Shown here: in pieces, positions 4,032 through 54,170 of the stretch
Position numbering within the stretch: position 1 is the stretch's first letter
Layout of the letters: each line of letters opens with the position of its first letter
From: an uncultured Candidatus Bathyarchaeia archaeon
GTDB taxonomy: Archaea > Thermoproteota > Bathyarchaeia > Bathyarchaeales > Bathycorpusculaceae
NCBI GenBank assembly: GCA_964347245.1
Contig: CAYFXZ010000002.1
Span: 11,529-75,528, forward strand
Length of the DNA stretch: 64,000 nucleotides
Direction of reading: 5' to 3'
Position numbers and translations under genes: made by a program
Notes under the pieces: generated by a model
The model's database searches: none
Seen by the model: only the letters and a program-made list of their open reading frames with translations
Told to the model about the DNA's origin: nothing

Positions 4032-4494
4032 AAAGGTAGCGGTTGGCGGAACCTTCGACGAACTGCACAAGGGACACAGGCGTCTACTTGACAAAGCCTT
4101 TGAGATTGGCGAAATCGTTTTAATCGGATTGTGCACTGACGAGTTCGCTAAAAGAATGAGTAAACCCCATATAACCGCACCGTACGATGTGAGGCTCAAA
4201 GAGTTGCAAGCCTACATAAAAAAGTCAAGCCAAAATGACAAAACAGAAATTATTCCAATAAACGATGCTTACGGCCCCACTCTTACAGACAAGTGCATAG
4301 AAGCTTTAGTCGTAAGCGAAGAAACTGAGAGAATCGCTTTAGAAATTAACCAAAAACGAAGCGAAGTGCAACTACCCCCGCTCGAAATAGTAACAATACG
4401 CATGGTACCTGCGGAAAACTATAAACCAATTTCAACAACGAGAATCCGTAAAGGCGAAATAGACCGCGAAGGACACCTGCTGAAGCGTCATTAA
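4018..4494 (+). CDS. coaD: Phosphopantetheine adenylyltransferase, archaeal type
   Basis: Cytidylyltransferase motif VGGTFDELHKGHRRLL. About 158 aa. Overlaps the upstream gene by 14 nt. Confidence 0.8.
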   Translation: MKKFRKVAVGGTFDELHKGHRRLLDKAFEIGEIVLIGLCTDEFAKRMSKPHITAPYDVRLKELQAYIKKSSQNDKTEIIPINDAYGPTLTDKCIEALVVSEETERIALEINQKRSEVQLPPLEIVTIRMVPAENYKPISTTRIRKGEIDREGHLLKRH

Positions 4495-4543
4495 AGTTGG
4501 CACTCTCCGTGTAAATTTGTGTAAAATGCTTAATGAAAAAAGT

Positions 4544-5092
4544 TTACCGCTGCAAACCTTGAGGTCTTTTATAAATTTCTTCTCGCCACTTTCGTTCCCA
4601 ACTTGCCCACCCAGTTTTCACTAAGCCTTCTCTCAGGTTAGGTATTTCAGCAACCCACTCAAGCAGCGTCCAGAAGCGCCTCTTGGTTTTAAGGAGTTCT
4701 GCGGGTACACCCACTTCTACACACCATCTGACGTAGCCCCTTTCAACCATTGCTTGAAGCTCGCCCGTAAAATCGACCTTTTCAACTCTATATCCGCGGT
4801 TTTGCAGGTACCTGCGCACGCTGGATAGAACGTAGCTTGAGCTAACCTTGAAGGAGGTCTCCGCGTCTGGCTGCATAACATCGAAAATTTCTTCGGCGAT
4901 TTTCACTGAGTCGTCCAAGTACTTTTTTTTCTTGAAATTAGGCGGCTGAAAGGATGCCGTGGGGACCCTCCGCTCCATGTAACGCGGGTCCGGAGGTTTG
5001 ATTGCGCCTATCACAATACCTAGTAAGAGGTCGCTCCATCCGGCACTGTCAATAATAATCTCTCTTGGGTAAGTAAAGTGGTTCAGCGTCAC
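4544..5092 (-). CDS. Hypothetical protein
   Basis: 182-aa ORF with no overlapping better frame and no motif I recognise. Confidence 0.5.
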   Translation of the reverse strand: MTLNHFTYPREIIIDSAGWSDLLLGIVIGAIKPPDPRYMERRVPTASFQPPNFKKKKYLDDSVKIAEEIFDVMQPDAETSFKVSSSYVLSSVRRYLQNRGYRVEKVDFTGELQAMVERGYVRWCVEVGVPAELLKTKRRFWTLLEWVAEIPNLREGLVKTGWASWERKWREEIYKRPQGLQR

Positions 5093-39022: not shown

Positions 39023-39766
39023 ATGGAGCAAAACCGCAGACAAAAAGCAAGAAAAAGGTTACTTCTAATAATGTTCTTTTTATTTCCAGTTGTGTATTAT
39101 TACCTTTCCCCATATCTCATCATTGCTGGTGGTTTAGAAGGCATCATAACCGGTAGTTTCATCAGCTTTCTTGGCATGTTCATAGGTTCACTTTTTCTTG
39201 GGAGACTTTTTTGCGGGTGGCTTTGTCCTGGTGGAGCTGTACAAGAATTAAGCCTAAAAATCAATAGTAAAAGTTACAACGGCAAAAAACGAAATCTAAT
39301 TAAGTATTTCATTTGGATTCCATGGATTTCAATAGTAGTAATTGTTTTCATTCAATCAGGAATAAGAGCTATTGACCCATTCTACCAAACTTATTATGGA
39401 ATCTCAATCTCCGATGTTTATTCAGCTATAACATTCCTTTTTTTCGCAATTCTAATTGGTGGAATTGCACTTGCAGCGGGCAAGAGAGCGTTTTGCCATT
39501 CTGGATGCTGGATGGCACCTTTCATGATTATGGGAAGAAAAATTCGAAACGTAGGAAACTGGCCATCACTACAACTCGTTGGAGATAGAAGTAAATGCAC
39601 TAATTGCTACACATGTACTAAGAACTGCTCTATGAGTTTGGATGTAAATTCAATGGTTCAGAATGAATCTTTGGAAGATTCCGAATGCATACTCTGCGGA
39701 AGTTGCGTAGATAACTGTCCTATGAATGCTATCACATTTTCTTTCGGCAAAAGAAAATCAAACTAA
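39023..39766 (+). CDS. NapH/MauN-like membrane 4Fe-4S protein
   Basis: TM helices with a CGWLCPGG motif and a C-terminal CTNCYTCTKNC ... CILCGSCVDNCP. Confidence 0.75.
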   Translation: MEQNRRQKARKRLLLIMFFLFPVVYYYLSPYLIIAGGLEGIITGSFISFLGMFIGSLFLGRLFCGWLCPGGAVQELSLKINSKSYNGKKRNLIKYFIWIPWISIVVIVFIQSGIRAIDPFYQTYYGISISDVYSAITFLFFAILIGGIALAAGKRAFCHSGCWMAPFMIMGRKIRNVGNWPSLQLVGDRSKCTNCYTCTKNCSMSLDVNSMVQNESLEDSECILCGSCVDNCPMNAITFSFGKRKSN

Positions 39767-44678: not shown

Positions 44679-45437
44679 ATGGGATTAATAAGGAAACGAA
44701 TTAGAATGAAACCACAAAAAGAGAACGCAAAAAAGAAGCTAAAAAACGTGGCTAAGATTAAAGTGAGCAAAAACGGTCCTTACATTATTTCAGGCAAAAT
44801 TCGTATACAAGAAAAGATAATTGTCGCCGATTCCGAGGGAACCGCCACAGAATGGAAGCCAAGTACCAAGTACACGCAACAAGAAAAATACGCCCTTTGC
44901 CGATGCGGACACACAAAGAAAAAACCTTTCTGCGATGGAACCCATATTGAAATCAATTTTGATGGTGCCGAAACTGCAAACGACGAAACTTACCTTGGCC
45001 AGCCAAAAAAGATTGATGGCCCAACTTTGAAACTGTCGGATATTGAAGACCTCTGCGCTTCAGCACGCTTCTGTCATAGGTCAGGCGGAATCTGGAAACT
45101 TGTCCCAGAATCAGACGACCCAGAAAAAAAGCAGATAGCCATCGAAGAAACGTGCGACTGCCCATCAGGTCGCCTTATCCTTTTCAACAAAAAAACTGGA
45201 AATAAGATTGAGCCTAAATTCACCAAGTCAATTGGTTTGATCTCAGATCCTGAGATGGGCGTGAGCGGACCAATTTGGGTACGTGGAGGTATACCAGTTG
45301 AATCTGCCAACGGTAAAACCTATCAGGTGCGCAACAGGGTTACTCTTTGTCGCTGTGGAAAATCCGAGAATAAGCCTTTCTGTGATAGTAGTCACTATCC
45401 TGAAGCAGAGACAGTAGAAAAGGTGCATAATAAATAA
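44679..45437 (+). CDS. CDGSH iron-sulfur domain protein (two CDGSH motifs)
   Basis: CRCGHTKKKPFCDGTH and CRCGKSENKPFCDSSH. Extra Cys-rich middle segment (CASARFCHRSGG...CDCPSG). Confidence 0.85.
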   Translation: MGLIRKRIRMKPQKENAKKKLKNVAKIKVSKNGPYIISGKIRIQEKIIVADSEGTATEWKPSTKYTQQEKYALCRCGHTKKKPFCDGTHIEINFDGAETANDETYLGQPKKIDGPTLKLSDIEDLCASARFCHRSGGIWKLVPESDDPEKKQIAIEETCDCPSGRLILFNKKTGNKIEPKFTKSIGLISDPEMGVSGPIWVRGGIPVESANGKTYQVRNRVTLCRCGKSENKPFCDSSHYPEAETVEKVHNK

Positions 45438-45471: not shown

Positions 45472-45681
45472 CTATCTGGAAACCACGAAAGCAACGTTGA
45501 CGACAGCGCGGTACTCTACAATCTTGTTGTCTTTCACTTTTGCAGTGCAACGTTTTACATGCACACTCTTGATGTTTTTGACTGTTTTAGCTGCTTCATC
45601 AATAGCATTCTGAGTTGCCTCTTGCCAGCCCTCTTTAGAATTTCCAATTAATTGGATTATTTTCACAACCATCAATTCCAC
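45472..45681 (-). CDS. Dodecin (flavin-binding) family protein
   Basis: VVKIIQLIGNSKEGWQEATQNAIDEAAKTVKNIKSVHV...KIVEYRAVVNVAF is the typical dodecin pattern. 69 aa. Confidence 0.8.
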   Translation of the reverse strand: MELMVVKIIQLIGNSKEGWQEATQNAIDEAAKTVKNIKSVHVKRCTAKVKDNKIVEYRAVVNVAFVVSR

Positions 45682-46299: not shown

Positions 46300-46848
46300 T
46301 TAACCGATAGCTAAAACGCCTTCTAATATCTTCTTTTCAGGAACCTCAAGTTGCTTTGACAACCAAATCTTCAAAAGTGCCGTTAACTTTGGAAGTTCAC
46401 CACTATACGTTATAATCTGATTGCCCTTTAGTGCATCAACCTGAAAAGTCTTTTCATCATCCTTGTACATGAAGGACAACGTTTGAGCTTGTCTAGCCAG
46501 AGTCTGAAAATCTTCCCACTGTTTGCATCGTAGAATCACCGGTGGACCATGCGTAACGCTGGCTGTAGCAACTTCGGTTTTCTTTTCAAGAGTCGGAGCA
46601 TTGGGAGCTTCTCGAGGCGAACTGGAAAGGTAATTAACCAATCCGGTTATATCGTTTTGTAAACCGCTTATTCTTTCCTCTACTTTCTCTACTTTACTAC
46701 TTAATTCGCCTGTTTCACCAAGTGCGTCGGCAACTGTTCCTAACTCGTTTATTAGTCTGTCTAAGTCCTTCTCGTGTTCCTTTAGAACATTAACTATGAA
46801 GTCCAACGCCTCTAATGCTTCATCTTTTGACTGCGGTTTTTTCGCCAT
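46300..46848 (-). CDS. Hypothetical coiled-coil protein
   Basis: 182-aa ORF with an N-terminal heptad-rich helix. Family unknown. Confidence 0.55.
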   Translation of the reverse strand: MAKKPQSKDEALEALDFIVNVLKEHEKDLDRLINELGTVADALGETGELSSKVEKVEERISGLQNDITGLVNYLSSSPREAPNAPTLEKKTEVATASVTHGPPVILRCKQWEDFQTLARQAQTLSFMYKDDEKTFQVDALKGNQIITYSGELPKLTALLKIWLSKQLEVPEKKILEGVLAIG

Positions 46849-47233: not shown

Positions 47234-47521
47234 TCAGCTTGGGTTCCAGATGCACCAAATAGCTTTTTGTTTACAAGCCAGCACGCAAGGTGCTTTTCCA
47301 CTTTCAGGTTTGCATGGCGAACATATGTATTTGATGTTTTTGCGCTGTTTCTCCGTTACCGCTGCAACCGTCTTGTCGTCCAAATCAATAAACATGCTCA
47401 CCAGTTCGAGGGAGGATGATGGACATTTCTTCACGCATTCACCACAACCATTGCATTTCTCCGCGTTAATGACAATGTAGTATTCTCCTGACCCGTTGCT
47501 ATATCCATAATGCGTGATTAT
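47234..47521 (-). CDS. Ferredoxin (4Fe-4S type), candidate ATA start
   Basis: CNGCGECVKKCP plus CSPCKPESGKAPCVLAC. The first cluster motif lies upstream of the only canonical start (GTG at 47434). AGGTGA-N6-ATA is at 47521. Confidence 0.75.
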   Translation of the reverse strand: MITHYGYSNGSGEYYIVINAEKCNGCGECVKKCPSSSLELVSMFIDLDDKTVAAVTEKQRKNIKYICSPCKPESGKAPCVLACKQKAIWCIWNPS

Positions 47522-47546
47522 TACATGTCACCTCTTTCAAATATTC

Positions 47547-48455
47547 TTAGCTTTTCTGTTGTTTCTCATATAACGCTCTAGCGAAAAGTGCCGCGCCAAT
47601 CGCGCCAGCTATAATGGGGTCTAACCCGTTTTCCCGCCAATCAGGCATAGGAAGGCATTTAATGCCAAGCGCTTTTTCTATCCTTGAGACGATGCCGATG
47701 TTTTTTGATTGTCCGCCAGTAATTGCGAATTCTTTTTCTAATCCCACTCTCTTAACTAGGTTGCCCATACGGATAGCCATCGCGTGAGTATATGCAGCTA
47801 AAACTTTTTCTTTAGACCAGCCTTTACGAAGCAACCCCATGGCTTCAGTTTTTGCGAAAGCCACGCAGGTGCAGCTAACTGGTGGAGGCTCCTCCTCAAC
47901 TTTCAATGAGACTTCACCGATTTTCTCGATCGGAATTTTAAGCAGATCAGCGAAAACTTCCATACCTCTGCCAGTTCCCGCTGCGCATTTATCATTCATT
48001 AAAAACGATGTAACTCGACCTGTTTCGTCGCAATGTATGGCTTTTATGTCTTGACCGCCAACATCGAGCACGGTTCTGACGCTGGGACCCCAAATATAGT
48101 TCGCGCCTTTTGCGTGACAAGCAATTTCTGTGATTGCCTTGTTAGCCATTGGAACGTTCACACGCCCATATCCTGTTCCAACAATGTACTTGAGGTCTTC
48201 AACTCTAAGCCCTGTTCCCTCTATTGCCCAGTCTAAAGCTTTCTTGGCGCTGTCAGGACTGTTTGACCCAGTCCGCATCACGCCCCAAGAATAAACATCT
48301 CCGTCAAGCATTGTTACAGCTTTCGAGCCAACCGAGCCAACGTCAACGCCCGCGGTGATTATGTCCTTGTTTTTCCACTTTTTCTCTGAGAAAACCCTGT
48401 GGTACTCTTGCCAGCGCCAATATTCTATATCTTCTTTCTTCGGGGTTTCACTGAT
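47547..48455 (-). CDS. BcrA/BcrD/HgdC-family electron-activating ATPase, subunit 2 (candidate ATC start)
   Basis: ASKHA phosphate-1 motif GVDVGSVGSKAV, NDKCAAGTG cluster ligand, and the second Cys in CTCVAFAKTE. The phosphate-1 motif lies upstream of the first canonical start (ATG at 48311). Confidence 0.85.
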   Translation of the reverse strand: MSETPKKEDIEYWRWQEYHRVFSEKKWKNKDIITAGVDVGSVGSKAVTMLDGDVYSWGVMRTGSNSPDSAKKALDWAIEGTGLRVEDLKYIVGTGYGRVNVPMANKAITEIACHAKGANYIWGPSVRTVLDVGGQDIKAIHCDETGRVTSFLMNDKCAAGTGRGMEVFADLLKIPIEKIGEVSLKVEEEPPPVSCTCVAFAKTEAMGLLRKGWSKEKVLAAYTHAMAIRMGNLVKRVGLEKEFAITGGQSKNIGIVSRIEKALGIKCLPMPDWRENGLDPIIAGAIGAALFARALYEKQQKS

Positions 48456-49248
48456 TTTCTTTCACCTTCACAACTCGTTTGATGGCGACAAGAGCCGCAC
48501 CCAATGCGCCAACATACTCTGGGTACTCGGGTATTAAAACTTCAACACCCAATTTTCTCTTTAAAGACGTTGCGAAGCCAACGTCTTTTGCGACGCCACC
48601 CACCAGCACAACATCAGGATTTACGCCTAGCCTATGCACCATTGACGAGACTCGATCAGCCATAGCTTCAAATATTGCCCGGGCAATCTCAGGTTTTGAT
48701 TCTTGCTTGTGTATCAGAGACACAACATCTGACTCGCCAAATATTACGCAGCTGGCGTTTATTGAACTTGCACGTTCAGCCTTAAGTGAAAGCGGACCCA
48801 TATCCTCTAGCTTAACCTCTAAAGCTCGCGCCATAGCTTCAATGAATGCGCCGGCACCAGCAGCACACCGCTCGTTAACAACGAAATCCATCATAATCCC
48901 GTTTTCGTCGCATTTTACTGCCCTCGCCTCTTCCGCGCCCACGTCAATAATTGTTCGAGCGTTTGGAAACAAGTGAATCCCTGCTTTTGCGTCTGCCCCC
49001 ATCATACTTACCGTGCTGTTGGAGTTAGCAGCCATATCCATGCCGGAACCTGTAGCCGTAATATGATCTACATTAGATGTTGACAGGTTGACTTCTTTTA
49101 ACGCATCACCAAGAGCCTTTTCAGCAGCCATCGCAGGATCAAACCCAGAAAAAGCTTTACTGCGGGAGACCACCTTACCATCTTTTAATACGACTGCCTT
49201 CACGCTTTGAGTGCCTAAATCTAGTCCAATGGTTATCAACAACTGCAC
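48448..49248 (-). CDS. BcrA/BcrD/HgdC-family electron-activating ATPase, subunit 1
   Basis: IGLDLGTQSVKAV, NERCAAGAG, SCVIFGES. The likely start is the second TTG (49239), because the GTG at 49248 is part of AGAGGTG. Confidence 0.88.
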   Translation of the reverse strand: MQLLITIGLDLGTQSVKAVVLKDGKVVSRSKAFSGFDPAMAAEKALGDALKEVNLSTSNVDHITATGSGMDMAANSNSTVSMMGADAKAGIHLFPNARTIIDVGAEEARAVKCDENGIMMDFVVNERCAAGAGAFIEAMARALEVKLEDMGPLSLKAERASSINASCVIFGESDVVSLIHKQESKPEIARAIFEAMADRVSSMVHRLGVNPDVVLVGGVAKDVGFATSLKRKLGVEVLIPEYPEYVGALGAALVAIKRVVKVKENQ

Positions 49249-49250
49249 CT

Positions 49251-50579
49251 CTATAAGTCAATCCTTGCCGAAAGCATCTCCAAGAACGCTTCAACCCTAG
49301 TCTTCATTTGACCCACGTCTTCCCGAGTGTACTCAGTATCCAAGTAGTAAACAGGAACGCTCTTGTGGTCCAAGACTTTTTTGATCCGCATGTATTCCAT
49401 TGCGTAGAGCATACAACCACGAACTACGTAGTAAATCACGCCTTGTATGTTCCATTCCTTAATTTTGTTTAACATCCAGTTGATGCGGTCTTCGTTACCG
49501 TCTTCAGAAGTGAAGCAGGGACACGTGGACGCCATCAAATACCTTTCAGCTACAGCGTTAAGCATATCTCTCATCGACCACTCGTCCACACCCACAGGGT
49601 CATACAGAAGCCTCTCACTTGAACAAAGCTCGTCAGCCACAAGTAACCCTCTAGGGTTAGCCTCCTCAACCAGCGTGGGAATCTTCCAGTTGTCAGGCCA
49701 AATCATTGGCGTGCCAGTAACCATTACCCGTGGAGTATCCGGAGGGCAAACCCAGTTTTTTTGGTTCGCTCTTTTTTCAAGCTCGTCACATAAGGCTTCA
49801 GTATTCTGCGTCCACCTCTTAATATCATCCCACATGTATGTCTGATTAACAAGCATAGCATCTCTACCCATAATGACTGGAGATCCCTTCCTCAATTCCT
49901 GCAATCTCCTGAAAGCCTTTGTCGCCTTCTGAGTAAGCTCTATGGCAGATTTCAACTGCTTCCCTTTAATCTTGTTTCCAGTTAACGCTTCAATTTGCCC
50001 TTTCACGGCCTTAATTTCCTCGCCCCACAAATGTATGGATTGCTCGGAATCCTTAACTCTTGGAATAGTCATCGCCCAAATAGGCTTATAATCACTAAGA
50101 ATTTCCCCGAGCTTAGTCATCCCATCACACGTTAGCACGCTTATCAAAGCGTCACTCAACTCGAGATAAGGAGACAAAGCAATCATTTGGGCGCCTATAG
50201 TTGAACGGACCATAGGGCAGACTTCAACAGGCACAACCCGGTCTCCAATCTTCGAAGCATCATACCAACCCGAGTTTACACGAACCGGAATAGCATCCGC
50301 AGCCAAAATTAATTCTGTCGGTGCAAACAGGCACATGTAGCCGATAACCTTCTTGCCTTCCCTTTTTGCAACGCTAATTTCTTTTTCCCGCTTGGTAAAA
50401 TCAGCTATTCCATCAAAGTACTTCATAGCTTTAGGACGGTTTGGATCTGCCTTCTTCATTTTCTCAATGTTTTCAGCGACTATCCTCTGGGAAGTAGCTT
50501 TGATTGTTTTTCTCAGTTCTTCAACTTCTTTCTGAGAGAGTTCAGGCATGTATTTCTTTTCTTCACTTTGGCTTATCAT
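49251..50579 (-). CDS. 2-hydroxyacyl-CoA dehydratase / BcrB-C / double-cubane-cluster-protein family Fe-S subunit
   Basis: 442 aa. Family-like Cys contexts GYMCLFAP, VEVCPM, LTCDG, STCPCF, RGCMLY. GAGTGA-N6-ATG. Confidence 0.7.
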   Translation of the reverse strand: MISQSEEKKYMPELSQKEVEELRKTIKATSQRIVAENIEKMKKADPNRPKAMKYFDGIADFTKREKEISVAKREGKKVIGYMCLFAPTELILAADAIPVRVNSGWYDASKIGDRVVPVEVCPMVRSTIGAQMIALSPYLELSDALISVLTCDGMTKLGEILSDYKPIWAMTIPRVKDSEQSIHLWGEEIKAVKGQIEALTGNKIKGKQLKSAIELTQKATKAFRRLQELRKGSPVIMGRDAMLVNQTYMWDDIKRWTQNTEALCDELEKRANQKNWVCPPDTPRVMVTGTPMIWPDNWKIPTLVEEANPRGLLVADELCSSERLLYDPVGVDEWSMRDMLNAVAERYLMASTCPCFTSEDGNEDRINWMLNKIKEWNIQGVIYYVVRGCMLYAMEYMRIKKVLDHKSVPVYYLDTEYTREDVGQMKTRVEAFLEMLSARIDL

Positions 50580-50585
50580 TATTAA

Positions 50586-51575
50586 TCACTCAATTGTTGA
50601 AGGTTCTAACCAGTTTCGAGACTTGAAAACGGTTTTTCTTCCCATCTTTACTTTCAAACAGTCTTCATATGGACACATTTCAACACACCTCGTGCACAGC
50701 ATGCACATTGAGGTGCTAATTTTTTCCCCTTTCTGTTCGTACACTTCGGTGACCTGCACTGGACAAACTCGCTTGCAAATTCCGCATTTAGTGCATTTCT
50801 GCTCATCCTTATCTATATGAAGCATAGGAGCCCATTTAAAACCTTTAAACCTATTCACGACAGCAATCGATACCCCTGTCGGACAAAACCGGCACCATAC
50901 GCGCCTCACAAAGAATGAACCAATAAACGTTAACCCCACGAAGATCCACGAGATAATATTAACAAAAAGTTGGTTGAAAACCACTTCAGAGTAAAGTATA
51001 ACTTCTTGAACGTACGGATAGCTGAAGTAAACTCCACTAATTGCAAGCGGCCCCTCCCAAGGGACAATCAATGGTATGATAGGACCAACCAGAATTCTCA
51101 AGGGCTCAAAAGGACCAGATAAAAGCAAAGCCAGAAGAACAGATAAGTCAAACGACGATGGAGGATCAAGCAGGAATAACACAAAAGGTATGATCAAAAA
51201 GATAAGAAACAACACGTATCGGAAGTTATGCAGGAATTTGTTGAGTTTATCGGATAAAAGGCGGTAGCGCACTTTGACGGTTTTTCTGATTAGAGTAATC
51301 GCATCCATGTATAAAGCAAAGGGACAAATCCAACCGCAAAAGAACCTTCCGAGAAAAAGAGGGAGAATAAGAATTACTGTTAACACTATAAGCTGCCATA
51401 CAGGGTAAGTGAACAAATAGAAAACCGCAACCATGGAAACTACCTGAACAAGGAAACGAAGATAGGTCACTTTTGTCGCCAGACCTTTTTTCCATATAAG
51501 AATAACAAGTATCCCCGCTAACGCTAACCCCGAGAGAACCGTTAACTTCAGTAACTCACCAATGATTTCCATCAT
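50586..51575 (-). CDS. NapH-like membrane polyferredoxin
   Basis: TM helices with CGWICPF. C-terminal CTKCGICKRVCP and CMLCTRCVEMCP. I prefer the ATG at 51575 (GGCGA-N7) to the track start at 51665. Confidence 0.78.
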   Translation of the reverse strand: MMEIIGELLKLTVLSGLALAGILVILIWKKGLATKVTYLRFLVQVVSMVAVFYLFTYPVWQLIVLTVILILPLFLGRFFCGWICPFALYMDAITLIRKTVKVRYRLLSDKLNKFLHNFRYVLFLIFLIIPFVLFLLDPPSSFDLSVLLALLLSGPFEPLRILVGPIIPLIVPWEGPLAISGVYFSYPYVQEVILYSEVVFNQLFVNIISWIFVGLTFIGSFFVRRVWCRFCPTGVSIAVVNRFKGFKWAPMLHIDKDEQKCTKCGICKRVCPVQVTEVYEQKGEKISTSMCMLCTRCVEMCPYEDCLKVKMGRKTVFKSRNWLEPSTIE

Positions 51576-51827
51576 GTTTATTTCGCCTTCGCAAAGTCTG
51601 GCAGCCAAATTAAGGTACAGAGCACTAATCCGAATAAGAAAACTTTGGCGGACACACCAAAACACTTTGAAAGCTCAAGCACCATTAACATTTTTAAAAT
51701 CTCGGGGTTTTTAGAGATCAAATAGAACCTGTTGCATTTAAAGCTTACACAAATAATAGGTTAAATGAGTTATTAGTTCAACATGGGAGTAGGCAGCGCA
51801 GTTCTTGCCTGAGACGCACAATGAACC

Positions 51828-54170
51828 CTATTGTTTACGCTTTTTTAAATAAACGAGAACACCCAAGTCAACAACAGCTATTATCATCATTACTATAGCC
51901 ATCCAAGTCATTAAGGAAGACTCTAGAGTTAGTAGTTGGTTCGGAGCATCCACTGCCCTAGTATTATATTCTCGGAGATATTGCAAGTGTGTGTCATCAG
52001 ATGGATAGCTTTCTGTTTCAGGATATGGGAAGCCGCTCATGCTTCGGAAAGGTAGTGGGTCTACTGTGAAGTCAAAACCGTAACCCCAGTTTCCTGGCGG
52101 ATCCTTGAACCAGCAAGCCACAAACATGAAAAAGTCCCGTTCTATGCCATCTTCAAGAGGTGGTAAATTTTCAACAGGAAATTGAAGAGACACTTGGTCA
52201 CCTTGTCTTCCGATTGCGTACATGTCGTCTCCTTCGAGCACTATTTGTGTTACGTCACCGTATCTTGTGAAGTCTCCTGTGGAAGATGAAGGAGTTTTAA
52301 ACGCTTGATGAAGGGTAGCGTCACCGTTGATCCGCTGAACAGTTATGTCTGCTTGCGGCGTTGTGTCTATTCCGATGTAATCGAAGGTTACGTTGAAGAA
52401 GTTTGTAATTCTAATCTTGTACTCCCTTACATCCTCTGGGAAAAGCCCGGTTAAGTCTACAACAAAGCCTCTGGGGACATAGTCGGAGGGCGTTGGCATC
52501 TGCCTGTCATTAGACACACGTACCCAATTTCCATTCGAATCTAAAACCTCCATATAAGGTGCAGGATAAATCTGTGTGCCGCTTGGCACAAATCCTTCGG
52601 TAAAAGCTTCTTTGAAGCCCTCAATCCACGTATAATAATGCTCAGGTGAACCCCAATCAATCATGCCCTTTAATACAAGTTTAATCTCTTCTGCATCAGC
52701 CAAATCACCTAGGTTCAGTGTCAATTGATTCAAATCAATATCGTCCCAAGATGAACTCGCCAGTCCATTACTTCCAGAGGTAAAGAGACCGTCCATCTCA
52801 GCAATTCGAGGCAAAACATCTTCTCCATTTTCGTTTACAGCGGAAACTGGGGACACCAATCCGTCCTTACTTACTGTGTAAATCTCACCCGGAAAAGCTT
52901 GATTGACATAGTTTACCATGGTTGAATAGACATCCACATCTGCCGGGTGATCAACGACCATCATGTAGGCGGCATCCAAATAGAAGATTTCATCCCACTT
53001 CTGAAGAAGGATAACATCATAAAAATCACCGCTCTCTGTACTTCTAAGTGTTAACTCACTTGAATCTAATTTTATGGTGTCCCATGGGTTTCCTCCGCCG
53101 AAAATAATCTCGCCGTTCTCATCAATATAATCGATATAACCTAACCAGCCAGCATTAGAAACTTCCGTTACATAAACATAATCGCTTCCGTTCCAATAGA
53201 ATAAGGAAGGACAGGAAGCATAACCACTTATCAGGTCATACGTTGCAACTAAAATCAGACTGTTTTCTAAGGTGAACTTCGTTGTTGTGCTTGTGTCTCC
53301 GTTGCTCCAGTACGCAAACTCGAAAACCGCCGTTTCAGAAATGAAGGGATCCGTTGTCGTAATTGTGTATTCACCTACAGGCAAGAGTCCAAAATAGGGC
53401 ATGTCAAGGTTTTCACCGTTAAGCGTGATAGGCACTAGGTCAGAACCGCCACCGGAATACCTGATAAGGGCTGTATGGTATCCTTCTGGAACGACCGTAA
53501 ACGTTCCAGATAAAGAGTTCACTTTAACAGTGTGTTTTCCTTCAGTCGTAGCATTATAAATGAATTCTACAGTCGTTGTTTCTTTCGCAGCTAGATTAAT
53601 TACTTTCCTCTCAACCAAAAAATCATCGACCATAAGTCTCACTGAAAGAACATCTGCCTCTTCTCCTTGGTTTGTGGCCGTAACTGTGGTTTTCATTATT
53701 TCATTGGGCCAAGCTTCACGTGGCTGAGTAGAAAGCTTAGATAGGATTATTTTGCTGGCTGACGGTGGTGGAAGGTTGAATGTCATTGATCCTGACAAAC
53801 CACAGGCTTCAATGCTATAGTCGCCCTCAACTTCTTTGATTACCATGAACTCAACCAGGGCGGATTCTCCAGCTAGAAGAAGAACCGTCTGGTTTTCCTC
53901 TAACACACCGTTTATTGTAAGATTGGCTATGTATTCTCCTTGTTCGCTTCCTATGTTAGTTAGGTTGACTGTTATCAAAACTGGTTCAAATACTTCAGCC
54001 TCCAGCGGGCTGATTGTGAGGTCAATTGCAGAAAACTCCGCTTGTTTAGGCCCAGCATCAATCAATCCTTCAGCCTGAAGGTAGAAGTAAACCCCAGCCG
54101 CTACAGCCACTATTAAAATGTCAATTACCAAAACTGCCTTTAATTTGGTTAATGCTGAGCGAGATTTCAT
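51828..54170 (-). CDS. Large cell-surface protein with CARDB-like domains and N- and C-terminal TM anchors
   Basis: N-terminal anchor. Two CARDB-like repeats (VNLTNIGSEQGEY..., VTATNQGEEADVLS...). A large beta-rich C-terminal region. Terminal TM plus a KKRKQ tail. Confidence 0.75.
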   Translation of the reverse strand: MKSRSALTKLKAVLVIDILIVAVAAGVYFYLQAEGLIDAGPKQAEFSAIDLTISPLEAEVFEPVLITVNLTNIGSEQGEYIANLTINGVLEENQTVLLLAGESALVEFMVIKEVEGDYSIEACGLSGSMTFNLPPPSASKIILSKLSTQPREAWPNEIMKTTVTATNQGEEADVLSVRLMVDDFLVERKVINLAAKETTTVEFIYNATTEGKHTVKVNSLSGTFTVVPEGYHTALIRYSGGGSDLVPITLNGENLDMPYFGLLPVGEYTITTTDPFISETAVFEFAYWSNGDTSTTTKFTLENSLILVATYDLISGYASCPSLFYWNGSDYVYVTEVSNAGWLGYIDYIDENGEIIFGGGNPWDTIKLDSSELTLRSTESGDFYDVILLQKWDEIFYLDAAYMMVVDHPADVDVYSTMVNYVNQAFPGEIYTVSKDGLVSPVSAVNENGEDVLPRIAEMDGLFTSGSNGLASSSWDDIDLNQLTLNLGDLADAEEIKLVLKGMIDWGSPEHYYTWIEGFKEAFTEGFVPSGTQIYPAPYMEVLDSNGNWVRVSNDRQMPTPSDYVPRGFVVDLTGLFPEDVREYKIRITNFFNVTFDYIGIDTTPQADITVQRINGDATLHQAFKTPSSSTGDFTRYGDVTQIVLEGDDMYAIGRQGDQVSLQFPVENLPPLEDGIERDFFMFVACWFKDPPGNWGYGFDFTVDPLPFRSMSGFPYPETESYPSDDTHLQYLREYNTRAVDAPNQLLTLESSLMTWMAIVMMIIAVVDLGVLVYLKKRKQ

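Follow-up and report, generated by a model that had tools for sequence, protein, structure and literature searches.

The double-cubane cluster protein (DCCP) of Carboxydothermus hydrogenoformans and its reductase DCCP-R (CHY_0487/0488; PDB 6ENO, 7YYL and 7YZM) associate an [8Fe-9S] protein with a single homodimeric ASKHA-type ATPase, each subunit of which contributes two Cys to the binding of a [4Fe-4S] cluster. The mechanism of this system and the [8Fe-9S] cluster of the benzoyl-CoA reductase subunit BzdN have been described (PMC9351452, PMC11971306), and the six ligands of the DCCP cluster are contained in a published seven-Cys motif (PMC7317905). Class I benzoyl-CoA reductases of the Bzd type (BzdNOPQ from Aromatoleum/Azoarcus, 8S02; MbdONPQ, 9GAI) are heterotetramers with two different HGD-D subunits and two different ATPases. 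In BzdN, the double-cubane cluster is a relay and not the active site, and in BzdO, the benzoyl ring sits in the space freed by the loss of one sub-cluster (PMC11971306); the low-potential ferredoxin BzdM is the electron donor encoded in bzdNOPQM (PMC5658619). 2-Hydroxyacyl-CoA dehydratases (HadBC/HadI, HgdAB/HgdC) belong to the same two protein superfamilies but are heterodimers carrying a [4Fe-4S] and a [4Fe-5S] cluster, served by a homodimeric activator. Membrane proteins of the NapH/MauN/NosR-C-terminal/CcoG family are polytopic and combine two CX3CP-type motifs with a C-terminal 2x[4Fe-4S] domain; pairing of such a protein with a cytoplasmic ATP-driven reductase has not been described for this family.

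Organization of the operon

The window (the whole 64,000-nt stretch of Bathyarchaeia DNA analyzed here) carries five co-directional genes on the minus strand (47234-51575), whose families were confirmed by HMMs. In gene order, they encode: (i) a NapH-like membrane polyferredoxin of the COG0348 type (50586-51575, 329 aa from the ATG at 51575) with PF12801 Fer4_5 and Fer4 dicluster domains, (ii) a DCCP homologue of the HGD-D family (49251-50579, 442 aa; PF06050, E = 8e-91), (iii) ATPase 1, an archerase-type, P/delta-like ASKHA protein (48448-49239, 263 aa from the TTG at 49239; PF01869 BcrAD_BadFG, E = 1e-43), (iv) ATPase 2, a BzdQ-like archerase (47547-48455, 302 aa from an ATC; BcrAD_BadFG, E = 6e-49), and (v) a 2x[4Fe-4S] ferredoxin of about 95 aa (47234-47521; PF00037/Fer4 matches). 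In the literature, this operon is annotated as "BcrACD". From its sequence, its product is probably a DCCP-type reductase with several components, which would be driven by ATP, operate at very low potential, be activated by a heterodimer and be linked to the membrane.

The preliminary description of this locus reported genes that overlap or lie 25 nt or less apart. The spacings are 6, 11, -8 (an overlap) and 25 nt in gene order, the last two being valid only with an ATC start (48455) for ATPase 2 and an ATA start (47521) for the ferredoxin. No ATG, GTG or TTG was found upstream of the conserved N-termini of these two proteins, and therefore their mechanical ORFs are shortened to 254 aa and 66 aa, respectively. 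In ATPase 2, the phosphate-1 motif GVDVGS lies upstream of the first ATG (48311), and a Shine-Dalgarno-like AGGTGA motif (48467-48462) lies 6 nt 5′ of the ATC, where relatives have an ATG. Gene finders overlook the ferredoxin gene, in which the first canonical start (GTG, 47434) comes only after the first cluster motif; the probable start is the ATA at 47521 or the ATC at 47518, and a Shine-Dalgarno-like GAGGTGA read from the sequence (47528-47534, minus strand) is found 6 nt 5′ of the ATA. A start-codon census found ATT, ATA or ATC at this position in half of the species, and a Shine-Dalgarno-like motif was found in 50 of the 72 orthologous loci. Two genes are devoid of canonical starts, and since ATPase 2 has an ATC in place of the ATG of relatives, expression may be lowered, or decay may be setting in, in this MAG. 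For the polyferredoxin and ATPase 1, the mechanical ORFs begin upstream of the starts given here: that of the polyferredoxin reaches a GTG at 51665, with alignments of relatives beginning near residue 26-33, and that of ATPase 1 begins at a GTG (49248), with a GAGGTG motif 6 nt 5′ of the TTG at 49239.

Upstream, with a 252-nt gap, the gene of a 780-aa CARDB-domain protein (51828-54170, minus strand; PF07705, 46 bits) is probably a separate transcription unit. This protein has membrane anchors at both termini (TM segments 13-31 and 757-775), and its gene lies upstream of the operon in 47 of the 66 loci that have enough flank. A gene encoding a 182-aa coiled-coil protein without significant Pfam family (46300-46848, minus strand), located 385 nt past the ferredoxin gene, is found downstream in many loci at a distance that varies and is probably not part of the operon.

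A single subunit of the DCCP branch

The 442-aa protein is the sole HGD-D family member of the cluster; JGI names it BcrC/BadD/HgdB, and its orthologues are named "2-hydroxyacyl-CoA dehydratase" by NCBI. It belongs to the DCCP branch of this family. Its score against the double_cubane model NF040772 is 333 bits, slightly below the NCBI cutoff of 350, compared to 91 for BzdN, 59 for BcrC, 25 for BzdO, 97 for HadC and 23 for HadB. It matches the DCCP structures 6ENO/7YYL over its full length (E = 1e-77). With the AF2 model (pLDDT 95.4), Foldseek placed 6ENO at the top (TM 0.88/0.92, E = 1e-31; 34% identity in the structural alignment), before BzdN, HadC and MbdN (E from 1e-17 to 2e-20) and then the catalytic BzdO, HadB and MbdO (about 1e-13). 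Cys83, 121, 151, 319, 353 and 389, which are all six [8Fe-9S] ligands of DCCP, are invariant in 80 species and also present in 37 of 38 distant representatives, the exception (P0163) differing at two ligand positions. The protein differs from its C. hydrogenoformans homologue by its archaeal host and by an Asn in place of the seventh, non-ligand Cys of the motif (Cys94). The DCCP match and the six ligands argue strongly against a benzoyl-CoA reductase or dehydratase subunit.

Two different ATPases and a ferredoxin

Unlike DCCP-R, the activating module of this operon comprises two paralogous ATPases, one of them degenerate in its motifs, and a dedicated ferredoxin. Both ATPases carry the bridging-cluster ligand motifs noticed initially (NERCAAGAG/SCVIFGES in ATPase 1, NDKCAAGTG/CTCVAFAK in ATPase 2), which are invariant in 71-73 species, and with only 32% identity they are indeed clearly different proteins that would form a heterodimer. 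ATPase 1 scores 204 bits against TIGR00241 and has the HadI activator as its best PDB match. Three of its motifs are degenerate (DVGAEE for DxGGQD, MGADAKAG for SCHAKGA and GAGAF for GTGRF), at the same three sites as in MbdP and in the fused ATPase of locus L092. Because the phosphate-2 and neighbouring motifs are altered, ATPase 1 may not hydrolyse ATP. ATPase 2 matches the BzdQ model TIGR03192 over residues 9-301 with 385 bits (equivalog cutoff 380), shares the N-terminal extension (EYWRWQEY) and scores 194 bits against MbdQ (9GAI_D). Both ATPases score 160-180 bits against HadI and HgdC. In a simple NJ tree, each is orthologous to one ATPase of the unrelated locus L088 (bootstrap 99% and 64%), and orthology of the pair with BzdP/Q is left without resolution. 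The ferredoxin carries CxxCxxCxxxCP and CxxCx8CxxxC motifs, whose eight Cys do not vary among 72 species.

Membrane partners

The first gene had been assigned to the NapH type on the basis of a CGWICP motif and two CxxCxxCxxxCP motifs. These motifs are present (CGWICP at residue 110, the two others at 291 and 321), together with CRFCP at 258, at least five hydrophobic segments and a Fer4_5 match of 43 bits, and none of the 12 Cys varies among 53 species. However, the NapH label stands only as a family-level resemblance: the protein scores 70.9 bits against NapH/MauN TIGR02163 (cutoff 213), is far under the NapH family cutoffs overall (66-71 bits versus 213-234) and, unlike members of that family, has no NapG, NosZ or oxidase partner, being associated instead with a cytoplasmic ATP-driven reductase. 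The NapH-like paralogue at 39023-39766, also a Fer4_5 protein, is without such companions, as described initially: neither an HGD-D protein nor an ATPase is paired with it in the whole window. It shares 22% identity with the operon polyferredoxin and is therefore more distant from it than the polyferredoxins adjoining DCCP genes in L083, L085, L092 and L094 (29-32%, E from 1e-25 to 1e-31).

Of 77 loci, 66 have the polyferredoxin and 11 lack it, so that the membrane link that it would provide is not obligatory. A DsbD/CcdA-like (DsbD_2) membrane gene (PF13386, 83.5 bits), absent from the window, is found in 49 of the 77 Bathyarchaeia loci.

Conservation in Bathyarchaeia and other lineages

Synteny of the operon genes extends to about 80 Bathyarchaeia species, and in 71 of 72 species loci the DCCP gene is accompanied by those of both ATPases and the ferredoxin. 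No second HGD-D or catalytic gene, including the BzdO/BcrB type, was found within 6 kb in 82 loci. DCCP systems with two ATPases also exist in at least four other lineages, some of them as DCCP-ATPase fusions; in L092 and L095, such a Rosetta-stone fusion is followed by a second ATPase. Taken together, the family match, this synteny and the lack of a second catalytic subunit support the early proposal of a membrane-linked, ATP-boosted reductase unlike the characterized systems.

Proposed mechanism and alternatives

In the proposed system, the small ferredoxin would reduce the [4Fe-4S] cluster bridging ATPases 1 and 2. ATP binding and hydrolysis by the heterodimer would then lower the potential of the electron and inject it into the [8Fe-9S] cluster of the 442-aa protein, probably a homodimer, where a small substrate that is hard to reduce would be reduced. 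The polyferredoxin would anchor these soluble components to the membrane and would most likely be where electrons from a membrane donor enter; the DsbD/CcdA-like protein may provide the membrane tie in many relatives, in addition to it or in its place. We infer here the heterodimer, the homodimeric stoichiometry of the DCCP homologue, the actual cluster content, the way in which electrons flow through the membrane protein and the nature of the substrate. In evolutionary terms, the system resembles a DCCP that relies on a Bzd-type activating module and ferredoxin, an architecture that looks intermediate between the homodimeric DCCP/DCCP-R and the heterotetrameric class I benzoyl-CoA reductases.

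Since the same type of cluster is a relay in BzdN, where it serves as an electron transfer and storage cofactor (PMC11971306), that of the 442-aa protein could also be one. This protein would then be an ATP-charged electron store or relay rather than the terminal catalyst, passing electrons of very low potential to the polyferredoxin, the DsbD/CcdA-like protein or both. These would in turn reduce a substrate in the membrane or outside the cytoplasm, perhaps a metal, metalloid or organometallic species that the cell imports or exports. We regard this alternative as unlikely but worth weighing. Membrane partners adjoin DCCP genes in unrelated lineages (the polyferredoxins of the four loci cited above; DsbD_2 in L085 and L094), besides the many Bathyarchaeia loci with DsbD_2. 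The L085 pair is set between a TonB-dependent receptor, DUF4198 and TonB, and in several lineages the flanking genes encode surface or secreted proteins: the window has CARDB, L083 and L092 have beta-propellers and Kelch, and L096 has a NosD-like beta-helix. DCCPs have moreover been associated, statistically and positionally, with a putative organometallic transport locus, the selenocysteine-assisted organometallic (SAO) locus, where they likewise adjoin membrane transport or redox components (Haft preprint, 10.1101/2022.07.06.499078). As a lead only, this likeness suggests small metal-containing substrates that are imported or exported. However, no SAO genes or selenoproteins were seen here, the partners being the polyferredoxin and, in relatives, the DsbD_2-like protein. 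Furthermore, in the characterized DCCP the cluster itself is the site where small molecules are reduced, the invariant core includes no metal-binding or transport gene, the membrane partners are not constant (no DsbD_2 gene in the window, no polyferredoxin in some loci), and the neighbours vary by lineage and could be coincidental.

In genome papers on Bathyarchaeota, the operon is annotated as an ATP-dependent (class I) benzoyl-CoA reductase or what is left of one, and anaerobic aromatic degradation has been deduced from its genes (PMC9241837, PMC12694404). The succession of two different ATPases and a ferredoxin, as in bzdPQM, the ATPase 2 score above the BzdQ equivalog cutoff and the JGI name of the 442-aa protein agree with this reading, which we nevertheless consider very improbable. 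The operon order parallels bzdNOPQM with one gene standing for N and O, and a membrane polyferredoxin is added. The single HGD-D subunit, much closer to DCCP than to any Bzd or Bcr subunit (25-91 bits), retains the ligands of both sub-clusters. A subunit of the BzdO type, with its 3-Cys [4Fe-4S]-OH2 active site, is absent, and with it any recognisable benzoyl-CoA pocket. Neither a benzoate-CoA ligase nor downstream pathway genes were found near the operon. The complete genome of Bathyarchaeum tardum encodes BcrACD, with BcrB not found; benzoate inhibited the culture, in which the ligases and the enzymes further down the pathway are missing (PMC10477458).

An ATP-driven reduction of a membrane lipid or membrane-embedded molecule, by analogy with the plasmalogen synthase PlsA/PlsR of the BCR/HAD family, which acts on membrane lipids (PMC12838417), is hardly credible. 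The first operon gene does encode a polytopic membrane protein, and the closest DCCP homologue outside Bathyarchaeia (47% identity) adjoins a UbiA prenyltransferase, but this neighbourhood hint is single and weak, and genes for lipid biosynthesis are not among the conserved neighbours of the operon. It also counts against this reading that PlsA/PlsR are large fusions falling in another sequence cluster. Finally, a 2-hydroxyacyl-CoA dehydratase with its activator(s), acting in amino-acid fermentation, fits the Pfam name HGD-D, the NCBI name of the orthologues and the HadI match of ATPase 1, but can practically be set aside, since such enzymes need two different subunits, one with a 3-Cys [4Fe-4S] site and one with a [4Fe-5S] site, in place of the single six-Cys subunit found here, which scores far lower against HadC and HadB than against DCCP, and their activators are homodimers required only catalytically and not paired paralogues.

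The reading that we retain as probable is a DCCP-type reductase that would be activated by a heterodimer. Bathyarchaeia are abundant sediment archaea across which this operon is conserved, and its genes are routinely read in papers as a benzoate-ring reductase, and hence as aromatic degradation, an interpretation that the sequence does not support.

Organization and start codons of the operon

The five genes lie on the minus strand (47234-51575) and encode, in order, a membrane polyferredoxin (50586-51575, 329 aa, ATG start at 51575), an HGD-D family protein (49251-50579, 442 aa, ATG start at 50579), a first ATPase (ATPase 1; 48448-49239, 263 aa, TTG start at 49239), a second ATPase (ATPase 2; 47547-48455, 302 aa, ATC start at 48455) and a ferredoxin (47234-47521, about 95 aa, ATA start at 47521), all coordinates being those of mechanical ORFs after refinement. 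The polyferredoxin and HGD-D genes are 6 nt apart, that of ATPase 1 follows after 11 nt, that of ATPase 2 overlaps the latter by 8 nt and the ferredoxin gene comes 25 nt further on, in agreement with the preliminary description of genes that overlap or are separated by 25 nt or less. An AT-rich gap of 252 nt with TTTAAA-type boxes precedes the polyferredoxin gene and a T-rich stretch is located 3′ of the ferredoxin stop codon, a layout compatible with a single transcription unit.

No ATG, GTG or TTG precedes the conserved N-terminal motifs of the last two proteins (GVDVGS, phosphate-1, in ATPase 2; the first CxxCxxCxxxCP in the ferredoxin). Because of this lack of canonical starts, ATPase 2 is cut to 254 aa and the ferredoxin is omitted in mechanical ORFs and public gene calls. 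A frameshift or homopolymer sequencing error is a poor explanation: (i) the NCBI contig to which the window belongs (JABAOC010000056.1 of the Bathyarchaeota MAG GCA_012975005.1) agrees with a Logan assembly, although the two may derive from one set of reads, (ii) the relatives carry an in-frame ATG exactly at the position of the ATC of ATPase 2, and (iii) the codon at the ferredoxin start is canonical in some of 72 species and ATT, ATA or ATC in others. The aligned first codon of the ferredoxin is TTG, ATG or GTG in 32 of these species, ATT, ATA or ATC in 32 others and GTT, GTC or TTT in eight, and is often just one or two codons from the preceding stop. Furthermore, an SD-like GGTGA motif is found upstream of the ferredoxin gene in 50 of the 72 loci, usually at 6 nt from the start. 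In the window, GAGGTGA lies 6 nt ahead of the ferredoxin ATA (47516-47534, minus strand) and AGGTGA lies 6 nt ahead of the ATPase 2 ATC (48453-48467, minus strand). Both codons are probably real non-canonical initiation codons.

A single subunit of the double-cubane type

The 442-aa protein matches Pfam HGD-D (E = 8e-91), as anticipated in the preliminary description, and its best NCBIfam model is that of double-cubane anaerobic reductases (NF040772), with 333.3 bits, a near miss of the equivalog cutoff of 350. The next-best family reaches only 97 bits (HadC), followed by BzdN (91 bits), BcrC (59 bits), BzdO (25 bits) and HadB (23 bits), for cutoffs of about 450 bits for BzdO and BzdN and of 700-750 bits for HadC and HadB. 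Among PDB entries, the double-cubane cluster protein (DCCP) of Carboxydothermus hydrogenoformans (6ENO/7YYL) matches over the full length (E = 1e-77; residues 45-436 on residues 36-421 of the chain), compared to E = 1e-24 for BzdN. The structure was predicted from 86 diverse aligned sequences, with a pLDDT of 95.4; 23 sequences with 81-93% identity had been too shallow an alignment for a usable model (pLDDT 43.6). DCCP heads the Foldseek ranking (TM 0.88/0.92); next come the relay-type BzdN, HadC and MbdN, with the catalytic BzdO, HadB and MbdO behind them. Both in full-length homology and in predicted fold, the 442-aa protein is closest to DCCP and not to the subunits of benzoyl-CoA reductases or 2-hydroxyacyl-CoA dehydratases.

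The six cysteines that bind the [8Fe-9S] cluster of DCCP belong to a published 7-Cys motif (PMC7317905). In the alignment, they correspond to Cys83, 121, 151, 319, 353 and 389 of the 442-aa protein, which are invariant in 80 species of Bathyarchaeia and kept in all but one of 38 distant representatives of the family, the exception (P0163) having two altered ligand positions. The seventh, non-ligand cysteine (Cys94 of the C. hydrogenoformans protein) is replaced by Asn at aligned position 102, which is occupied by C, N, S, D or Q across family representatives. The C. hydrogenoformans DCCP is homodimeric, binds [8Fe-9S] and reduces acetylene and hydrazine with ATP.

The window carries no further HGD-D or ATPase homologue, and no second HGD-D gene was found within 6 kb in any of 82 loci, in line with the single catalytic-family subunit noticed earlier. 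Benzoyl-CoA reductases of the Bzd type combine BzdO, with a 3-Cys [4Fe-4S]-OH2 active site, and BzdN, with an [8Fe-9S] cluster, whereas the operon has a single HGD-D gene, whose product scores poorly with both. Besides, neither benzoate-CoA ligase nor dienoyl-CoA pathway genes are found in the 64-kb window or in the compared loci. Independently, Bathyarchaeum tardum is reported to have three adjacent "BcrACD" genes but no BcrB, no ligases and no dienoyl-CoA pathway genes, and to be inhibited by benzoate (PMC10477458). A 2-hydroxyacyl-CoA dehydratase would need an alpha/beta pair of HGD-D subunits and is also rejected given the single gene and the low HadC and HadB scores. Both readings fail on their defining feature, two different catalytic subunits, since no second one is encoded in the window or within 6 kb in the 82 loci.

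Two dissimilar ATPases

ATPase 1 and ATPase 2 both belong to the BcrAD_BadFG/TIGR00241 family and share 32% identity. Each carries, invariant across species, the two cysteines by which HgdC, HadI and DCCP-R (the ATPase partner of the C. hydrogenoformans DCCP) hold their bridging [4Fe-4S] cluster. However, DCCP-R is a homodimeric reductase encoded by one adjacent gene, whereas two paralogous ATPase genes accompany the DCCP gene here (71 of 72 loci). ATPase 2 exceeds the cutoff of the BzdQ equivalog of NCBIfam (TIGR03192; 385 bits for a cutoff of 380), has an N-terminal extension (EYWRWQEY) and has MbdQ as best PDB match. The operon encodes two different ATPases including one of the BzdQ type, as Bzd systems do, and the two would share a bridging [4Fe-4S] cluster.

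The canonical motifs DxGGQD, SCHA(K/R)GA and GTGRF are replaced in ATPase 1 by DVGAEE, MGADAKAG and GAGAF, respectively. MbdP (PDB 9GAI chain C; GGQT, TATARGA and GTGMF) and the first ATPase, fused to DCCP, of the distant locus L092 (GGQG, SAFARGA and GTGTF) depart from the consensus at these three otherwise conserved motifs as well, in GTGRF at the Arg. This shared degeneracy hints at a recurrent functional asymmetry, or division of labour, in heterodimeric archerases. A simple neighbour-joining tree pairs ATPase 2 with L088_B (99% bootstrap) and ATPase 1 with L088_A (64%), the ATPases of a locus from an unrelated lineage, which puts the origin of the two paralogues before the split from that lineage. 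Deep nodes toward MbdP and MbdQ have bootstrap values of 16-37%, so that orthology of ATPases 1 and 2 to these proteins is unsupported; the motif degeneracy and the BzdQ score remain.

Ferredoxin and membrane polyferredoxin

In the ferredoxin, a classical motif is accompanied by a CxxCx8CxxxC motif, and all eight cysteines are invariant. The latter spacing is typical of the low-potential ferredoxins of the Allochromatium/Thauera type that serve benzoyl-CoA reductase and nitrogenase. The protein also matches, weakly but over its full length, the nif-specific FdxN model of NCBIfam.

The polyferredoxin (Fer4_5) shows five or more hydrophobic segments, a CGWICP and a CRFCP motif and a pair of [4Fe-4S] motifs, with all motif cysteines invariant. 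The NapH type formerly attributed to it holds for the architecture and motifs (a polytopic protein with two CX3CP and two [4Fe-4S] motifs, as in NapH and MauN) but not for the family scores, which are far under the NapH cutoffs (TIGR02163, 70.9 for a cutoff of 213; PRK09477, 66 for a cutoff of 234). Judging from these scores, the protein is NapH-like in architecture without being a NapH. Quinol oxidation with a NapG-type periplasmic ferredoxin partner is a trait of the NapH/MauN family, and no NapG-like gene was seen in the operon cluster. The window encodes a second Fer4_5 membrane polyferredoxin (39023-39766, plus strand, 247 aa), with 22% identity to the operon copy; the homology search of the window found no HGD-D or ATPase gene beside it, as had been pointed out.

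Conservation in Bathyarchaeia and neighbouring genes

More than 1,400 homologues of the 442-aa protein were retrieved at E < 1e-20; the best 120 of them share 80-93% identity with it, and all those with an organism name come from Bathyarchaeota. A scan limited to one genome per species gave 108 relatives, from which 80 loci were kept (69-88% identity), essentially all of them from Bathyarchaeia and including closed chromosomes. The genes of ATPase 1, ATPase 2 and the ferredoxin follow in the same order in 71 of the 72 loci with enough downstream sequence, and the polyferredoxin gene was found in 66 of the 77 loci with enough upstream sequence. The synteny of the operon among relatives, raised as a check in the preliminary description, is therefore well supported.

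Many Bathyarchaeia carry another membrane gene, encoding a DsbD_2/CcdA-like protein of about 230 aa (PF13386, 83.5 bits) with two Cys-Pro motifs (CTATCLPY and LCPPL), located between a CARDB gene and the polyferredoxin gene, or directly before the DCCP gene where no polyferredoxin gene is present. It was detected in 49 of the 77 loci (L070:5217-5978; orthologues at about 4200-5000): 40 loci have both membrane genes, 26 only the polyferredoxin gene (as in the window), nine only the DsbD_2-like gene and two neither. No copy of the DsbD_2-like gene exists anywhere in the window. Its product also weakly matches the ArsG arsenical permease family (37 bits).

The CARDB gene (51828-54170, minus strand), directly upstream of the operon, encodes a 780-aa protein with N- and C-terminal membrane anchors and is syntenic upstream in 47 of 66 loci. 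On the other side, a 182-aa coiled-coil protein without family assignment (46300-46848, minus strand) is encoded downstream in many Bathyarchaeia loci, at variable distance; clustering of downstream ORFs revealed no other broadly recurring gene. Two genes located 2 kb downstream of the operon encode a protein in which Fer4_19 is flanked by two zf-CDGSH iron-sulfur domains (44679-45437, plus strand) and a dodecin-family protein (45472-45681, minus strand). The two loci devoid of both membrane genes have upstream a gene for a 456-aa protein that resembles, by eye, a CDF-type transporter with repeated C-terminal domains (L027:4034-5404 and L074:2740-4110). As a partner of the module, it is probably incidental, being found in only two related genomes and not adjacent in one.

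Double-cubane loci beyond Bathyarchaeia

Among 1.84 billion cluster representatives, searched exhaustively, 2,759 relatives of the 442-aa protein were found, the nearest clusters outside Bathyarchaeia sharing 43-47% identity with it. The two-ATPase design occurs in at least five lineages. Locus L088 (DCCP, two ATPases and ferredoxin) is orthologous to the four core genes of the window and adjoins a 2-oxoacid:ferredoxin oxidoreductase, while L096 carries DCCP and two ATPases. L092 (polyferredoxin, DCCP-ATPase fusion, second ATPase) and L095 (DCCP-ATPase fusion, second ATPase) encode natural fusions (L092:8001-10280, 759 aa; L095:917-3430, 837 aa), each followed by a separate second ATPase gene; these predicted fusions physically tie one ATPase to DCCP. 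One-ATPase versions were found in L090 (Omnitrophota; classical DCCP with one ATPase) and L094 (polyferredoxin, DCCP, one ATPase, DsbD_2).

The pairing of a polyferredoxin with DCCP was found in five lineages, and these polyferredoxins share 29-32% identity with that of the operon (E = 1e-25 to 1e-31), compared to only 22% for the window paralogue. DsbD_2 is associated with DCCP in three lineages, and its gene flanks that of DCCP in two unrelated ones (L085:9241-9864 and L094:9084-9704). The bacterial locus L085 is organized as TonB receptor, DUF4198, polyferredoxin, DCCP, DsbD_2 and TonB, L083 as polyferredoxin, DCCP and Kelch protein among beta-propeller proteins, and L086 as UbiA followed by DCCP alone. 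Surface-type proteins encoded beside the DCCP modules of other lineages include beta-propeller, Kelch and NosD-like beta-helix proteins and a TonB receptor.

Proposed function, evolution and significance

All the components of the operon come from known families and its chemistry would follow the known archerase principle. In the papers covered, the only activator given for DCCPs is one homodimeric reductase (PMC9351452; PMC11971306; PMC7317905), and bathyarchaeal copies appear only as incomplete or assumed benzoyl-CoA reductases (PMC10477458; PMC12694404; PMC9241837). Nor was any account found there of a DCCP served by two ATPases or by a membrane partner, or of one that combines a heterodimeric activator with its own ferredoxin and membrane partners.

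The double-cubane cluster cannot be reduced by dithionite or Ti(III) citrate (PMC9351452; PMC11971306; PMC7317905). In the working order most likely by homology, the ferredoxin would pass electrons to the bridging cluster of ATPase 1/ATPase 2, ATP would drive their injection into the double-cubane cluster and the latter would reduce an inert substrate. The polyferredoxin would connect this machinery with redox reactions of the membrane. In the main rival reading, the double-cubane cluster is a relay that feeds the membrane proteins, which act on a substrate in the membrane or outside the cytoplasm. This rival is suggested by the relay function of this cluster in BzdN (PMC11971306), by the recurrence of membrane and surface-protein neighbours beside DCCP and by a reported association of DCCP with a putative organometallic transport locus (10.1101/2022.07.06.499078).

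The operon follows the order of bzdNOPQM, in which BzdM serves as donor ferredoxin (PMC5658619), except that one gene takes the place of bzdN and bzdO. A published proposal takes DCCPs as the archetype of BzdNO, which would have arisen from them through a duplication and the loss of one sub-cluster (PMC11971306). The operon joins the activating module and the ferredoxin known from the derived enzyme to the undivided catalytic component of the archetype, and its single catalytic gene with a Bzd-like ATPase pair fits the proposed path from DCCP to benzoyl-CoA reductase.

More tentatively, and with rather low confidence, Bathyarchaeia and several other uncultured anaerobes might share an unrecognised class of membrane-coupled archerases. 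These would combine a homodimeric DCCP, a functionally asymmetric ATPase heterodimer that charges it and a membrane link through the polyferredoxin and/or the DsbD/CcdA-like protein, and would carry out, class-wide, reductions beyond the potential of ferredoxin, a metal, metalloid, organometallic or other inert small molecule at the membrane being a plausible target. If true, this would provide the first physiological context for double-cubane proteins, and the machines would be a surviving intermediate in the evolution that led to class I benzoyl-CoA reductases.

No physiological role has been established for double-cubane proteins (PMC9351452; PMC11971306; PMC7317905), and orthologues in 80 species, with a dedicated ferredoxin and membrane partners, offer a defined conserved context in which to search for the substrate. 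The putative heterodimer of ATPases with one catalytic gene would break the symmetry seen so far (homodimer with homodimer, heterodimer with heterodimer), which makes the operon a good place to ask why one of the two ATPases degenerates. Finally, several genome papers on Bathyarchaeota infer anaerobic aromatic degradation from these genes, taken as benzoyl-CoA reductase (PMC10477458; PMC12694404; PMC9241837). The sequence evidence says that the enzyme of this operon is a double-cubane reductase and that the catalytic subunit required for benzoyl-CoA chemistry is missing; therefore, the inferences of aromatic degradation made for Bathyarchaeota merit revisiting.
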